NCBI GenBank assembly: GCA_039800365.1 | Contig: JBDLQW010000041.1 | Location: forward strand, 1 to 48,040 | Direction of reading: 5' to 3' | Source: Pseudomonadota bacterium | Lineage (GTDB): Bacteria; Bdellovibrionota; UBA1018 | Length of the DNA: 48,040 nucleotides | Shown: in pieces, positions 21,647-34,204 of the stretch | Layout of the letters: each line of letters starts with the position of its first letter | How positions within the stretch are numbered: the stretch's first letter is position 1 | Program-made: the position numbers and the translations under genes | Notes under the pieces: generated by a model | What the model saw: only the letters and a program-made list of their open reading frames with translations | Told to the model about the DNA's origin: nothing | Databases searched by the model: none

Positions 21647-21811
21647 TTCGATTTGCGAACATTAGTTTGAAATCAGAGTAATGCAATAGCCCCGTGCAAA
21701 AATAAATCCGTGCTTGAGATTTGCAATTCTGAAACTCCCGTCTACACTCCGAGCCATAGAGTGTGTGTGTTTTAGAAGTTGTCCGAAGTTGGAACCTAAG
21801 GGGGGGAGTCC

Positions 21812-23254
21812 ATGTCGTTGTCACGGAAGCTGACTATTCTCGCTATTGCAATGCAAGGTTTTGCTCTTGCTGCAGTAGCTTCACCAGAATTCAAAGAACA
21901 TGAAGTCATTGTGAAATATCGCGACGGCGTTTCGCGTCCGCGTATTGCCATGAATCAACTTTACAGTAAGGCAGGCGTTCGAGGAGTTCGCTTCATGGGC
22001 GGAAGCCTCAAGCAGTTCGAACATGTGCTGCTTGAAGATGAAGTTAAAGTTCAGGACGCAATCGCCGAGTTCGAGAAGAACCCGATGGTTGAGTACGCTC
22101 AGCCCAACTACGTCATTCGAATCTCACCACAAGAGTTACGCCCTCAAGAGGGGCTTCCTTGCATTCCAGGATTCGACATTCCTGGGTGTGATCCTAATAT
22201 GAAGTTGCCTTGTCTTTTTCCTGGAATTCCATTTCCTCCGGGATGCGAAGATAATGGCGGTGGAATGCCTGGAAATCCGGGTGGGCCTGGAAACCCTCCC
22301 GCTACCCGGCCCGACTTGACCCCTCCGCCCGCAGAAGTGAATCCTCCGGTGGCGGATCCCGATTTGGCGAAGGCCTATGGAATTGGTAAGGTTGGTGCGA
22401 CCCAGGCCTGGGCCCAGCATCAGGGCAATAAAGACATGATTGTCGCAGTGATTGATACCGGTATCGATTACAATCATGAAGACTTGAGCTTCAACGTCTG
22501 GCGCAATCCGAATCCCACCAAGGGCGATGTTGTTGGTTTTGATTTCATCCACAACGATGGAATTCCTTACGACGACCAGGGTCACGGATCGCACTGCGCA
22601 GGAACGATCGGCGCCGTCGGTGGAAATGGCGTCGCAGTTTCGGGTGTGTCTCAGCGAGTTTCGATCATGGGCGTGAAGTTTCTCTCTGCAGAGGGAAGCG
22701 GCACGACCGAAGGCGCTATTCAGGCGATCGATTATGCTGTCGAGCATGGCGCGCGGGTCTTGAGCAACTCTTGGGGAGGTCCGATGGACGGACAAAACAA
22801 GGCGCTCTACGATGCGATTGATCGTGCCAAAGCTAAGGGAGCGCTCTTTGTTGCCGCAGCAGGTAATGACGGCAAGAATAACGATGACTCTCGTCAGGCC
22901 AGCTATCCCGCAGCCTTCGACAACGACAACATCCTTGCTGTTGCTGCTACCGATGACAAAGACGGAATGGCATTCTTTTCGAACTACGGAAAGACTTCCA
23001 CCGACGTGGGAGCCCCTGGTGTGAATGTTTACAGCTTGGCGCCTGGAAATAAGTACGCCTCGATGTCTGGCACCTCGATGGCGTGTCCGCATGTGGCGGG
23101 CGCAGCGGCCTTGCTTTGGTCTAAGAATCCTTCATGGGATTACAAGAAGGTGAAGGAAGTTCTGATGAACACCGCTGATCCTGTTGCGTCGCTAGCCGGA
23201 AAGACGGTCACCGGCGGACGCATCAACGTCGCCAAGGCGTTGCAGGTTCAGTGA
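21812..23254 (+). CDS. Secreted subtilisin-like serine protease (S8) with I9-type propeptide and Cys/Pro/Gly-rich linker
   Basis: Signal peptide (LTILAIAMQGFALAAVA). Catalytic triad contexts VAVIDTGID, HGSHCAGTIGA and SGTSMACPHVAG. AAGGGGGGGAG SD upstream. Confidence 0.9.
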   Translation: MSLSRKLTILAIAMQGFALAAVASPEFKEHEVIVKYRDGVSRPRIAMNQLYSKAGVRGVRFMGGSLKQFEHVLLEDEVKVQDAIAEFEKNPMVEYAQPNYVIRISPQELRPQEGLPCIPGFDIPGCDPNMKLPCLFPGIPFPPGCEDNGGGMPGNPGGPGNPPATRPDLTPPPAEVNPPVADPDLAKAYGIGKVGATQAWAQHQGNKDMIVAVIDTGIDYNHEDLSFNVWRNPNPTKGDVVGFDFIHNDGIPYDDQGHGSHCAGTIGAVGGNGVAVSGVSQRVSIMGVKFLSAEGSGTTEGAIQAIDYAVEHGARVLSNSWGGPMDGQNKALYDAIDRAKAKGALFVAAAGNDGKNNDDSRQASYPAAFDNDNILAVAATDDKDGMAFFSNYGKTSTDVGAPGVNVYSLAPGNKYASMSGTSMACPHVAGAAALLWSKNPSWDYKKVKEVLMNTADPVASLAGKTVTGGRINVAKALQVQ

Positions 23255-23270
23255 TCCAGTGATCTCGACG

Positions 23271-23593
23271 GAATGAAACCACTCTTTTCAAGAGTGGCGG
23301 CCAAGGATTAGGCCAATCAACACGAGGGCCGGAGCATGAAGCTCCGGCCCTCACCTTTTTTGAGCGCATCCTGCGCTATTTGAACGAAGCGAAATCCTTT
23401 TGCTCCGATGATCTTCCTTGATGATCCACATCCTCAACTTGCTCGCCTCCTGCGCGCAGGCTTCGGATGTTCCCGCCTCCATCCATAGACGCGGGCCCTC
23501 CTTACGAACGGAATCCTCCTGATTCGATTTCGGCCCCACCAGTCCGTGGTGAGACCCTCTCCCTCTGATGTTTTTAAGTCGATGAATTCGCGC
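23271..23593 (-). ncRNA. Candidate CsrA/RsmA-binding GGA-hairpin RNA (stand-alone sRNA or structured 3-prime UTR of the dksA-like gene)
   Basis: I count 16 GGA triplets on the minus strand. At least six short hairpins carry GGA in the loop, and several have an AGGAUG core. The array ends in GC-rich hairpins at 23326-23350 and 23279-23297. No supported ORF. No promoter identified. Confidence 0.35.
23326..23361 (+). terminator. Rho-independent terminator after the S8 protease gene
   Basis: 10-bp stem GGGCCGGAGC / GCTCCGGCCC with loop ATGAA, followed by TCACCTTTTTT. Confidence 0.75.
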
Positions 23594-23998
23594 TTATGCG
23601 AACCGCATCTTGGTACCAAGGCTCTTGTAGCGATGGCCATCGATGTGAAGCGCCTCATTTCGCTCTTGGGCCTCTTTGCAGTCCACGCAATGGGTTGCCG
23701 TGGGTCGGGCCTCGAGTCTTTTTAGGCTGATCTCATCGTCGCACTCCAGGCAGATTCCAAATGACCCTGCATGGATACGATCAAGCGCCTCCTCGATTTT
23801 CTTGAGGAACAGAGCCTCGCGATTGCGAAGTCGCATGCGCATCGCGGTCTCGGTCTCAGTGGAGGTGAAGTCGACTTCGTCAGCGAGATCCTCTGCCCGA
23901 AGATAGAAGTCTTCGTTCGCGATCTTGCCGCTGTAAAGCAGCTCACGCTTCTGCCAGTTGAAAAGCGCCTTAAAGCGATTGAGTTTCTCGGTTTCCAT
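23594..23998 (-). CDS. DksA/TraR-family C4 zinc-finger protein (paralogue A, coiled-coil tip DxxDxT)
   Basis: CLEC...x17...CVDC zinc finger, RMRLRNRE and LEARPTATHC motifs. Start placed at the ATG at 23998, preceded by AGGAGGTGA. The ORF-track GTG at 24016 lies upstream of this SD. Confidence 0.85.
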   Translation of the reverse strand: METEKLNRFKALFNWQKRELLYSGKIANEDFYLRAEDLADEVDFTSTETETAMRMRLRNREALFLKKIEEALDRIHAGSFGICLECDDEISLKRLEARPTATHCVDCKEAQERNEALHIDGHRYKSLGTKMRFA

Positions 23999-24197
23999 CT
24001 CGTCACCTCCTGCCACCTAGTAGTGCGAGAGGTGCGCCAAGCTTTTCACACCCAAGTTCAGGGGCCGTGAAAACACCGAAATCGGGGCTAAGGCCCTGAG
24101 ACTCGAGGGTTTTTTTGTGTATCGAGAGGTCGGATAGAAAAACCGGCAGGGTGGGGTAATTTTCACCCCAGAGCCAAAACGGCTCCGATTGAAAGCA

Positions 24198-24215
24198 GGG
24201 GCCATCCTTGGCCCC
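24198..24215 (-). promoter_or_regulatory. Stem-loop with AGGA tetraloop downstream of dksA-like paralogue B (weak terminator or protein-binding site)
   Basis: Minus strand GGGGCCA-AGGA-UGGCCCC, followed by UGCUUUCAAUC. Confidence 0.4.
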
Positions 24216-24239
24216 CAAGAACTAAAGATGTCGAGTGGG

Positions 24240-24650
24240 TTAAGCCCACTTGCGATTCATGGTATCGCCCAGGCTCTTGCTGGTGCGTCCTGCGGCAGTG
24301 ATGATTTCTTTGCGCTCTTGTTCTTCCTTGCAGGAAACGCAAAGGGTGGCTGTAGGACGGGCCAGCAACCGGTTGTGGCCAATTTCTTCTCCGCACTCTT
24401 CGCAATCGCCGAAGGTTCCTTCCTCAATTCGCAAAAGCGCTTCCTCGAGCTTCTTGAGATACAGGGCTTCGCGGTTTCTTAATCGCATCCGCATCGATTG
24501 CTCGATATCAGAAGTGGCCTGATCCAGTTCGTCGAAACGATCGTCGGTATTGACGCTAAAATCTTCACGAACGACTCGGTCACTGAAAAGAAGTGACTTC
24601 TTCTGTTCCTCGAAGAGCTTCTTGAATTTTTTTAGAGCATCTTTTCTCAT
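24240..24650 (-). CDS. DksA/TraR-family C4 zinc-finger protein (paralogue B, canonical DxxDxA tip)
   Basis: CEEC...x17...CVSC zinc finger. DELDQA aligns with the E. coli DksA D71-x-x-D74-x-A76 tip. RMRLRNRE motif. ATGA overlap with the mglA stop. Confidence 0.85.
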   Translation of the reverse strand: MRKDALKKFKKLFEEQKKSLLFSDRVVREDFSVNTDDRFDELDQATSDIEQSMRMRLRNREALYLKKLEEALLRIEEGTFGDCEECGEEIGHNRLLARPTATLCVSCKEEQERKEIITAAGRTSKSLGDTMNRKWA

Positions 24651-25237
24651 GTTTTCCCCCCTTTTAACTCACGGATCACCCACTGGCTGATTGCCTGTAG
24701 AGTCTCCATGACCCCTTCCCCACGGTTTGCGATTGCCTCAAATGCTGGCCTCTTGACTGCGTTGAAGGTCGCTTCGAGCTGCGCCACGGACACCGCACCG
24801 GGCACATCTCGCTTGTTGTACTGCAGGACCACTGGAAGCTTCAGGATATCGTAGCCCTGGTGATCGAGGCTCTTGGCCAGCGATTCAAAGCTTTCGATAT
24901 TTGCTTCCATTCGTTCCGCCTGGCTGTCGACGACGAACACCACACCGTCGACCCCCTTCATAATGAATTGGCGGGACACTTCATAAAAGGTCTGCCCCGG
25001 AATCGTGTAGAGATGAAAGCGGGTTTTGTACCCGCTAATTTCTCCAACCGATAAGGGCAAGAAATCGAAAAAGAGCGTGCGCTCATTTTCAGTACTGAGA
25101 TTCACGAGCTTTCCGCGGCGCTCCTGCTGGGTGTGCTCGTAGATGTATTGAACGTTCGTCGTTTTTCCGCAAAGCCCGGCGCCATAATAGATAATCTTGC
25201 AGTGAATTTCTTTAGCCGCGTAATTGATGAAGCTCAT
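24647..25237 (-). CDS. mglA: Ras-like polarity/motility GTPase MglA
   Basis: MSFINYAAKEIHCKIIYYGAGLCGKTT, RTLFFDFLP, HLYTIPGQ and QYNKRD. By eye, near-collinear with the Myxococcus xanthus MglA sequence as I recall it. ATGA overlaps at both ends. Confidence 0.88.
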   Translation of the reverse strand: MSFINYAAKEIHCKIIYYGAGLCGKTTNVQYIYEHTQQERRGKLVNLSTENERTLFFDFLPLSVGEISGYKTRFHLYTIPGQTFYEVSRQFIMKGVDGVVFVVDSQAERMEANIESFESLAKSLDHQGYDILKLPVVLQYNKRDVPGAVSVAQLEATFNAVKRPAFEAIANRGEGVMETLQAISQWVIRELKGGKT

Positions 25238-33289: not shown

Positions 33290-34204
33290 ATGAGTGACGA
33301 TCGTGTGCCTTCAGCTCTCGAGAAATATTTTCAAGATTTTTCAGCAGCCCTACCTCAGCACGAGCTCGAGCTTTTTCTAGAGGCAGCTTTTCATCGAGAG
33401 TTTCCTCGGCTTCCGCGTTTGACTCGTTCACAACTTTACAGTGGAGATCGTCTCATCGAAGGCGATTGGATGACTCAGGCTCGCATCTGGGCCGAAAAGC
33501 GTCGAGCAGCTCGAGTCCCCCTTCAGCATTTGGTTCGTGAGCAGTGTTTTTATGGCCGGTATTTTGAGGTCGGCCCAGAGGTCTTGATTCCACGTCCTGA
33601 AACTGAGGTTTTGGTTGAGGCGGTTTTGAGCTGGATTTCGAGACAGCCAGTCACTGGCCGTTCGCTTGTGGGAGCCGAGATTGGAACCGGGAGTGGCGTC
33701 ATTCCAGTGACCTTAGCTCTGGAGTGCCCATCGCCCTTGCGTCTGTTTGCGACTGAAGTCAGTCCCGAGGCCTTGTTTCGCGCTCAACGAAACGCCGAGC
33801 TTTTGCGAGTTCCCTCCCAATCAATCGAATGGGTGGAAGTGATCGATCCCTCCGATGTGTTGCAGACGCTTCAGTCGCGACTGGCAGCTAGGTCCACTCC
33901 GTTAGACTTCATTGTGAGTAACCCGCCGTACCTCAGAAATGATGCGTCTGAGGTAGAAAGCGAGGTGGCGCGATTTGAGCCTCCGCAATCGTTGTTCGCT
34001 CCCGAGCAGGATCTGCTCTACTATTATCGAGAGATTTCGCTGAGGGCGTCCCTCACGCTTCGTCCCGGGGGGAGGGTTTTTCTTGAGATTCCCCACGAGA
34101 GAGCCCTTGAGATTCGCGCGCTTTTTGAGGGGTCCTATGAGGACCTTCGAATTCTTAAAGACCTTTCCGGAAGAAACCGGGTTTTAGAAGCTAGGGTGAA
34201 ATGA
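33290..34204 (+). CDS. prmC: Release factor glutamine N5-methyltransferase
   Basis: NPPY motif (IVSNPPY) and SAM-binding GTGSG. Immediately downstream of prfA. Confidence 0.88.
   Translation: MSDDRVPSALEKYFQDFSAALPQHELELFLEAAFHREFPRLPRLTRSQLYSGDRLIEGDWMTQARIWAEKRRAARVPLQHLVREQCFYGRYFEVGPEVLIPRPETEVLVEAVLSWISRQPVTGRSLVGAEIGTGSGVIPVTLALECPSPLRLFATEVSPEALFRAQRNAELLRVPSQSIEWVEVIDPSDVLQTLQSRLAARSTPLDFIVSNPPYLRNDASEVESEVARFEPPQSLFAPEQDLLYYYREISLRASLTLRPGGRVFLEIPHERALEIRALFEGSYEDLRILKDLSGRNRVLEARVK

Follow-up and report, generated by a model that had tools for sequence, protein, structure and literature searches.

What is encoded between a dksA-like gene and the protease gene that converges on it in an uncultured Bdellovibrionota genome, and could this spacer carry an RNA that sequesters the regulator CsrA? 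The question arises from contig JBDLQW010000041.1, a stretch of 48,040 nucleotides (nt) referred to here as the window, in which a 339-nt spacer separates the second of two dksA-like paralogues (dksA#2, minus strand) from a gene for an S8 protease on the plus strand. An earlier note on this DNA had described a series of hairpins with GGA in their loops on the minus strand of the spacer, and had proposed a sponge RNA for CsrA/RsmA. We find that this array is genuine: a structured RNA element, conserved in relatives, that bears CsrA-type sites. It is likely a new, mRNA-embedded CsrA-titrating RNA and, on balance, we favour reading it as the 3′ untranslated region (3′UTR) of a sigma-54-driven mRNA of the dksA paralogue that titrates CsrA.

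The minus strand contains 16 GGA triplets between positions 23326 and 23593, a recount identical to that of the earlier note, and the plus strand three. This number ranks top among all 268-nt segments on both strands of the 48 kb (mean 3.7, standard deviation 2.2). The 4-5 triplets that had been given as the expectation match the genome-wide rate, but not the local one: with its high purine content, the segment gives 8-10 when shuffled locally (8.0 for mononucleotide and 9.7 for dinucleotide shuffling), and 16 or more were reached by 4 out of 5,000 mononucleotide and 15 out of 5,000 dinucleotide shuffles. The 341-nt stretch folds with -143.4 kcal/mol, against -114.5 ± 5.6 kcal/mol in shuffled controls (z = -5.2). 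Six GGA lie in hairpin loops of the minimum free energy (MFE) structure, compared with 1.1 in shuffles, and none of 300 shuffles attains six; overall, the loop GGA number 6-8, against about one. Those at 23545, 23519, 23484, 23450, 23397 and 23371 are unpaired with probabilities of 0.84-1.0. With a looser hairpin scan, the segment holds eight GGA-loop hairpins per 300 nt, the maximum of the window, over a background of about 1.4. Every hairpin listed earlier was recovered where it had been placed, with some amendments: GCAGGAGGC, taken for a linker, is really the loop of a hairpin homologous to a conserved one in relatives (H4 in Table 1), the GC-rich hairpin given as 10 bp (23326-23350) has 12 bp, and the exact AGGAUG core ascribed to several sites occurs only twice in the array.

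Orthologous loci were collected from species-representative genomes (L007-L013), from a metagenome scan with a DksA alignment (at least four useful loci, L087-L090, the matches listed being mainly canonical DksA genes) and from contigs encoding homologous proteins (L167-L181). Homologues of the DksA-like #2 protein numbered 263, and those bearing a name were Bdellovibrionales, Bdellovibrionota or Oligoflexia; a DksA identity of 68-74% defines what we call the window clade. In essentially all collected loci, A-N-GGA-N stem-loops begin on the dksA strand within 8-40 nt of the dksA#2 stop, and in L172 and L177 the array persists despite different flanking genes. The 18 non-redundant spacers following the orthologous gene contain 75 GGA-loop hairpins in sense and 25 in antisense orientation, where shuffles lead one to expect 39. 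Counted over the 200 nt that follow the stop codon, sense and antisense hairpins average 3.25 and 0.55 in 20 non-redundant Bdellovibrionota loci, whereas in 144 other dksA loci from the same scans, a natural control, the averages are 0.65 and 0.84, respectively (Mann-Whitney p = 2e-11).

Within the window clade, the hairpins align one to one. Alignment A3 comprises seven distinct sequences and 58 pairs; pairing holds in 89.6% of its cells, against 33-41% with slid partners, 17 pairs show compensatory changes and none of 500 shuffles attains any of five measures; alignment A2, with five sequences, agrees with this result. The comparison of orthologous spacers proposed in the earlier note shows that stems covary and loop GGA stay (in all sequences for H1-H3 and H5, in 6/7 for H6). 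Compensatory changes affect 6 of the 10 pairs of H1, whose GGA is kept in all six clade sequences having the region, and 6 of the 9 pairs of H3, which in relatives takes the form GGCC-AUGGAY-GGCC with an outer CCGA/UCGG stem and keeps its GGA in 7/7. The A-U to G.U changes seen in H2 are workable on the minus strand only. H4 is homologous to GYGC-AGGAW-GCRC of the relatives (GGA kept in 5/7), and the CAUCA-NGGAN-GAU block of H5 is invariant except at the N positions in all seven sequences, GGA included (7/7). At the H6 position, relatives have CUCGAC-AGGAM-GUCGAG or CGGC-AUGGAU-GCCG, and for H7 the stem is conserved, yet its GGA is kept in just 3/7. Single hairpins have been gained and lost, with 7-10 present in L012 and L170 and almost none in L008; in L012, which represents a distant lineage, the array expanded independently to 10 hairpins. 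Across relatives, the hairpin copy number is fluid and the type of element constant.

Pooling the 75 sense hairpins gave the loop consensus C(47%)-A(63%)-N-GGA-U(48%)-G(68%), in which N is mostly A or U. AUGGAU is the most frequent loop, and AUGGAC and ACGGAU are also among the many loops found; the median hairpin spacing is 30 nt. The CANGGANG hexaloop is a high-affinity CsrA/RsmE site (PMC4894983). The consensus C-A-N-GGA-U-G matches this site and is presented in apical loops, and the spacing fits bridging by a dimer. Shuffles, relatives, covariation and loop consensus together support the non-random, conserved minus-strand array that the earlier note had seen.

Table 1. Coordinates of the array, its hairpins and the neighbouring features in the window
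Feature	Position	Strand	Details
H1, GGUCUCACCA-CGGAC-UGGUGGGGCC	23532-23556	-	Probability of GGA being unpaired 1.0
H2, GAAUC-AGGAG-GAUUC	23511-23525	-	Probability unpaired 0.84; GGA kept 6/6
Linker GUAAGGAGGG	23496-23505	-	GGA single-stranded or weakly paired; window-specific insertion
H3, CCCGC-GUCUAUGGAUGGAG-GCGGG	23472-23495	-	GGA at 23484, probability unpaired 1.0
H4, core CGC-AGGAG-GCG (23444-23454)	23441-23457	-	Probability unpaired 1.0
H5, GAUG-UGGAU-CAUC or GAUC-AUCAAGGAA-GAUC	23410-23432	-	Alternative pairings; core AUC-AAGGAA-GAU (23411-23422) conserved
H6, GGAGCA-AAAGGAUUUCG-CUUC	23386-23406	-	Loop GGA at 23397, probability unpaired 0.99; AUCGGAGCA at 5′ side
H7, AGCGC-AGGAU-GCGCU	23363-23377	-	Probability unpaired 1.0
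12-bp GC hairpin	23324-23352		Common to both convergent transcripts; T6 on plus strand; minus-strand tail GUGUUGAUU
Protease 3′UTR module	23264-23314	+	CUCGACGGAAUGA (23264-23276), hairpin 23279-23297, GGCC-AAGGAUUA-GGCC (23299-23314)
Sigma-54-type -24/-12 motif TGGCGC-N5-TCGCA	24024-24039	-	26 nt upstream of the dksA#2 ATG
8-bp hairpin UGGGGGCC-AAGGAU-GGCCCCUG	24196-24217	-	About 25 nt past the stop of dksA#1
dksA-like paralogue #2 (dksA#2)	23594-23998	-	134 aa; ATG 23998; stop TAA 23594-23596
Convergent subtilisin-like (S8) protease gene	21812-23254	+	Pfam Peptidase_S8 and Fervidolysin prodomain

The array could not be assigned to a described RNA family. At Rfam gathering thresholds the whole window yields tRNA only. 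The CsrB/CsrC/RsmX/RsmY/RsmZ models, a check named in the earlier note, all failed, the best being PrrB_RsmZ with 25.7 bits against a threshold of 44, a match confined to the window. No array match was obtained in 11 relatives, and TwoAYGGAY is absent from the nine Rfam matches at E ≤ 10 in 23150-23750. With the CsrB/CsrC/RsmX/Y/Z class the array shares several loop-exposed GGA (6-8, on covarying stems) and does not share a promoter of its own. It would work like CsrB or RsmZ, yet stands outside those families. A strict A-N-GGA hairpin scan also flagged 33810-33902 on the minus strand, which we rejected as it lies inside a coding gene of the opposite strand.

Which transcript carries the array is best judged from the position of promoter motifs. 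A scan of 22900-24300 found no sigma-70-like promoter, relatives share no conserved motif or promoter in the last 75 nt of the open reading frame (ORF) up to the first hairpin, and no GacA/UvrY box was found at the array. That no promoter had been found earlier is borne out directly in front of the array; upstream of dksA#2, a sigma-54-type motif is found. This motif has the conserved GG (-24) and GC (-12) of sigma-54 units with 5-nt spacing (TGGCNC, TCGCA) and is the sole match to its sequence in the window (0.14 expected). In the relaxed form TGG[CT]-N7-T[CT]GC[AT], it lies upstream of dksA#2 and on the dksA strand in 15 out of 18 Bdellovibrionota loci, the distance to the start codon being 26 nt for five loci of the window clade, 30 nt for L008 and between 200 and 535 nt elsewhere. 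We propose, from sequence, that 24024-24039 is the promoter of a transcript comprising dksA#2 and the GGA array. Since the first hairpin comes 8-40 nt past the stop and the only conserved promoter lies upstream of the ORF, the array (23353-23593) is probably the 3′UTR of the dksA#2 mRNA and not an independent small RNA (sRNA) gene; the structured 3′UTR, which the earlier note had held in reserve, is the alternative to be preferred. In distant relatives, the long dksA#2 leader often contains more GGA hairpins and sometimes a small ORF. One such ORF of about 70 aa (...FWSVFGPAARY.F..PEYAYAVSLK), conserved between L177 (2030-2245) and its equivalent in L013, lies between the sigma-54 motif and dksA#2 and has no Pfam match.

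Strand and 3′ boundary were assessed in the same loci. The GGA/UCC asymmetry places the array on the dksA strand, its G.U pairs fit that strand, whereas the opposite one would have C.A, and MFE prefers the dksA strand in 13 out of 18 loci. The two hairpins that had been taken as the terminator of the array probably belong elsewhere: a T run, UUCG loops and G.U pairs point to the plus-strand protease gene. The terminator scan called the GC hairpin on the plus strand only, its outer pairs in three relatives are A.C on the minus strand and G.U on the plus strand, and it shows one compensatory change, from G-C to A-U, in L180. A U tract on the dksA strand is seen in some distant relatives (L010, L012, L013 and L177). 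When read in the protease sense, the hairpin at 23279-23297 shows G.U pairs and UUCG tetraloops in relatives. It belongs to a module that reads, in relatives, CUCGAYGGANUGA, a variable hairpin, GGCC-A[ACG]GGA..-GGCY, a terminator and a T run, and in which the loop of GGCC-AAGGAUUA-GGCC is always A-[ACG]-GGA on the plus strand. Because 14 syntenic loci keep this module, and MFE gives the protease sense the greater stability in 12 of the 14, it is assigned to the protease 3′UTR, with a conserved GGA hairpin of its own. The GC hairpin and the 23279-23297 hairpin are best read as part of the convergent protease 3′UTR/terminator, and the array and the protease module meet at a common, effectively bidirectional hairpin. 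In some relatives, the 13-mer CUCGACGGAAUGA overlaps the last protease codons and the stop; in the window clade it lies outside the coding sequence and is nevertheless invariant. A perfect 8-bp tandem duplication, CAGTGATC twice in 23249-23264 (plus strand), overlaps the protease stop codon and may account for the protease of the window lineage stopping short of the conserved 13-mer.

CsrA of Bdellovibrio bacteriovorus is functional, as it represses a GGA-dependent reporter, and many functional CsrA homologues are predicted in the Bdellovibrionota (PMC13443453). We found no literature linking Bdellovibrio with CsrB- or Rsm-type RNAs; the claim that no such RNA has been described in Bdellovibrio-like lineages agrees with a literature that is likewise without an RNA antagonist of CsrA for the phylum. 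From the above we infer CsrA as ligand of the array, a titration effect, sigma-54 dependence and the transcript boundaries. The mRNA for the DksA-like protein would start at the sigma-54-type promoter at 24024-24039, and its tail (23353-23593, minus strand) would fold into 7-8 stem-loops with (C)A-N-GGA-N(G) loops, the recognition element of CsrA/RsmA dimers. When a sigma-54 activator fires, the cell would obtain the DksA paralogue together with an RNA able to hold several CsrA dimers (6-8 sites, about 30 nt apart); free CsrA would fall and CsrA targets would be de-repressed. The acting form may be the full-length, dual-function mRNA or a processed 3′UTR fragment, with an RNA 3′ end predicted at or past the GC hairpin common to the convergent protease gene.

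Several observations weigh against this reading. A tblastn search of the 48-kb window and of about 180 fetched loci detected no csrA gene, and a search with a synthetic CsrA consensus, whose matches listed (at least 120) were Planctomycetota-like or unnamed and never Bdellovibrionota-labelled, was uninformative, so the presence of CsrA in the window lineage is presumed from phylum-level literature. L008, a close relative, has a 184-nt spacer with one 3-bp GCC-AAGGAA-GGC hairpin, the array being nearly absent, and two further relatives have spacers of just 185-200 nt. Distant relatives hold 2-4 hairpins, enough for control in cis and few for a sponge. The sigma-54 call is a motif-based one, with TCGCA and not TTGCA as the -12 element, and in the window clade the minus strand has no proper U tract after the GC hairpin.

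Purely cis-acting control, in which CsrA or another protein would act on the dksA#2 mRNA itself, on its stability, its translation or the formation of its 3′ end, without meaningful titration of the CsrA pool, is the main rival, although we consider it rather unlikely. It would fit hairpins that lie physically within the mRNA and have no separate promoter, the 2-4 sites of distant relatives and the GGA inside the dksA#2 Shine-Dalgarno (SD) sequence. The repression of dksA by CsrA in E. coli (PMC7652899) points the same way, as do single conserved GGA hairpins, one in the 3′ region of dksA#1 and one in that of the protease gene, which suggest general 3′UTR regulation at the locus. However, the 7-10 sites that arose by independent expansion in the window clade and L012 exceed the usual need of cis control and reach a CsrB/CsrC-like density, and a variable hairpin number beside a conserved ORF is what one would expect of a dosage or titration element. 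Recognition by something other than CsrA, either by another RNA-binding protein or by RNAs with UCC pairing with the GGA loops in an anti-SD-like manner, is decidedly improbable. The failure to find csrA in the window or the fetched loci would agree with it, and a minus-strand read-through would meet the conserved UCC sequences UAAUCCUU and CAUUCCGUC in 23264-23314; nevertheless, the extended apical-loop consensus CANGGAUG is specific for CsrA/RsmE-type proteins, and most loops (AUGGAU, ACGGAC) would mimic an SD poorly.

The earlier note had put first an independent sRNA gene of the CsrB/RsmZ type, which would need a promoter buried in the 3′ end of dksA#2. With about 240 nt and its density of GGA it would resemble a typical Csr sRNA, and the RsmZ model aligns weakly over its full length (E = 6e-4 in a 601-nt search). 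That match stays below threshold and was not reproduced in relatives, no conserved motif lies in the final 75 nt of the ORF or the first nt past the stop, and the missing sigma-70-like site and GacA/UvrY box also argue against such a gene, which we consider very improbable. Finally, chance or base composition, a small coding ORF, or filler of the terminator or repetitive extragenic palindrome (REP) kind is scarcely credible as an explanation. Purine-richness alone doubles the expected GGA, and a 36-aa ORF predicted by public gene callers lies within the array at 23376-23486 (minus strand); however, shuffles, slid-pair controls and the 144 natural control loci reject chance, and coding or filler origins are effectively refuted, since ORFs of the array are unconserved and broken by indels, which makes the 36-aa ORF probably spurious, and the array contains no tandem repeat. 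We therefore retain the CsrA-titrating 3′UTR of the dksA#2 mRNA as our preferred reading.

The genes dnaX, recR, mglA, dksA-like #1 (24650-24240) and dksA-like #2 follow one another on the minus strand, and the synteny of the protease gene is kept in most relatives. The DksA-like #2 protein, with the Pfam domains DksA_N and zf-dskA_traR, is encoded identically on seven public metagenome contigs (NCBI locus tag RJB38_552), and the SD of its gene is a GGAGG inside CAGGAGGUG. By mechanical ORF calls, recR, mglA and dksA#1 overlap by 4 nt at 24647-24650 and 25234-25237 (minus strand); the published recR call begins further downstream than the mechanical one. A DksA-like gene follows mglA, instead of an mglB within about 10 kb. 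The hairpin past dksA#1 (24196-24217) is conserved with its A-N-GGA-N loop in L007, L167, L168 and L170. GGCC-N-GGA-N-GGCC has only two copies in the window, both flanking the dksA#2 unit. Between dksA#1 and the sigma-54 motif (24080-24190, minus strand), the conserved hairpins or palindromes CGGAGCC-GUUUU-GGCUCUGG and GGGGU-GAAAAUU-ACCCC covary in relatives and could be the terminator of the mglA-dksA#1 operon or a site for an enhancer-binding protein. The 5′ region of the protease gene (about 21670-21811, plus strand) has the conserved blocks TGCAATA-CCCCGTGCAAAAATAAAT and GAGATTTGCAATTC, and GGA occurs twice in its leader, in UUGGAAC and in the SD GGGGGGGA; in L175, the corresponding region gives a weak CsrB match of 16 bits, outside the array.

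Among known systems, CsrB/CsrC and RsmX/Y/Z of the Gammaproteobacteria (Rfam CL00106) are closest in architecture, having multiple A-N-GGA-N stem-loops at about 6 GGA per 100 nt, a GC-rich end hairpin and a CsrA-family dimer as ligand, which for the array is presumed; CsrB/CsrC are further alike in their link to DksA and guanosine tetraphosphate (ppGpp) circuitry in E. coli. The array differs from them in having no sequence or model homology and no GacA/UvrY box, in probably forming an mRNA tail, with a sigma-54-type promoter motif, and in occurring in Bdellovibrionota. Outside the Gammaproteobacteria, the usual partner of CsrA is the protein antagonist FliW. The orphan Rfam family TwoAYGGAY, which has no known ligand, consists of two hairpins with AYGGAY terminal loops; many loops of the array are AUGGAU, AUGGAC or ACGGAU, although no match was obtained at E ≤ 10. 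CrcZ and CrcY of Pseudomonas are protein-sequestering sRNAs that depend on a sigma-54 promoter and an enhancer-binding protein and present A-rich motifs to Hfq/Crc. They share with the array the sigma-54-type promoter that we propose for it, and they differ in being independent sRNAs and in being A-rich instead of carrying GGA. RsmW of Pseudomonas aeruginosa originates in the 3′UTR of the protein-coding gene upstream of it. This RsmA-binding RNA (PMC4950607) resembles the array in such an origin; it is, however, a gammaproteobacterial sRNA that is short, has few GGA sites and is unrelated to the array in sequence. The Campylobacter jejuni flaA and Salmonella fimAICDHF leaders are, like the array, coding transcripts with CANGGANG hairpins, and such leader mRNAs can antagonise CsrA in an organism without canonical Csr sRNAs (PMC4894983). 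They have two sites in a 5′ leader, whereas the dksA#2 array has 7-8 in a probable 3′UTR, and they encode a structural protein where dksA#2 encodes a transcription factor.

RNA sponges of CsrA are textbook knowledge in Gammaproteobacteria, while control elsewhere is considered to be mainly by FliW and many bacteria with CsrA are without such sRNAs (PMC4894983, PMC7652899). Such control devices are so far known almost only from Gammaproteobacteria, and the array offers a concrete case, easy to test, of possible RNA-based CsrA control beyond them. A more far-reaching version, which we put forward tentatively, is that it represents a Bdellovibrionota RNA antagonist of CsrA that evolved apart from the Csr/Rsm sRNAs, a sigma-54-controlled dual-function mRNA in which a DksA-family factor is fused to a multi-site sponge, with the 3′UTRs of the protease and mglA-dksA#1 as possible clients. 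If so, one induction event would reprogramme RNA polymerase and the CsrA regulon together. In E. coli, CsrA represses dksA, and DksA/ppGpp activates csrB/C (PMC7652899); this link would here be hard-wired on a single transcript. Further members could be sought by a sigma-54 promoter, a dksA paralogue and then CANGGAUG hairpins. Compared with the known CsrA-sequestering RNAs, the novelty of the array lies in its placement on an mRNA, its type of promoter and its phylum.

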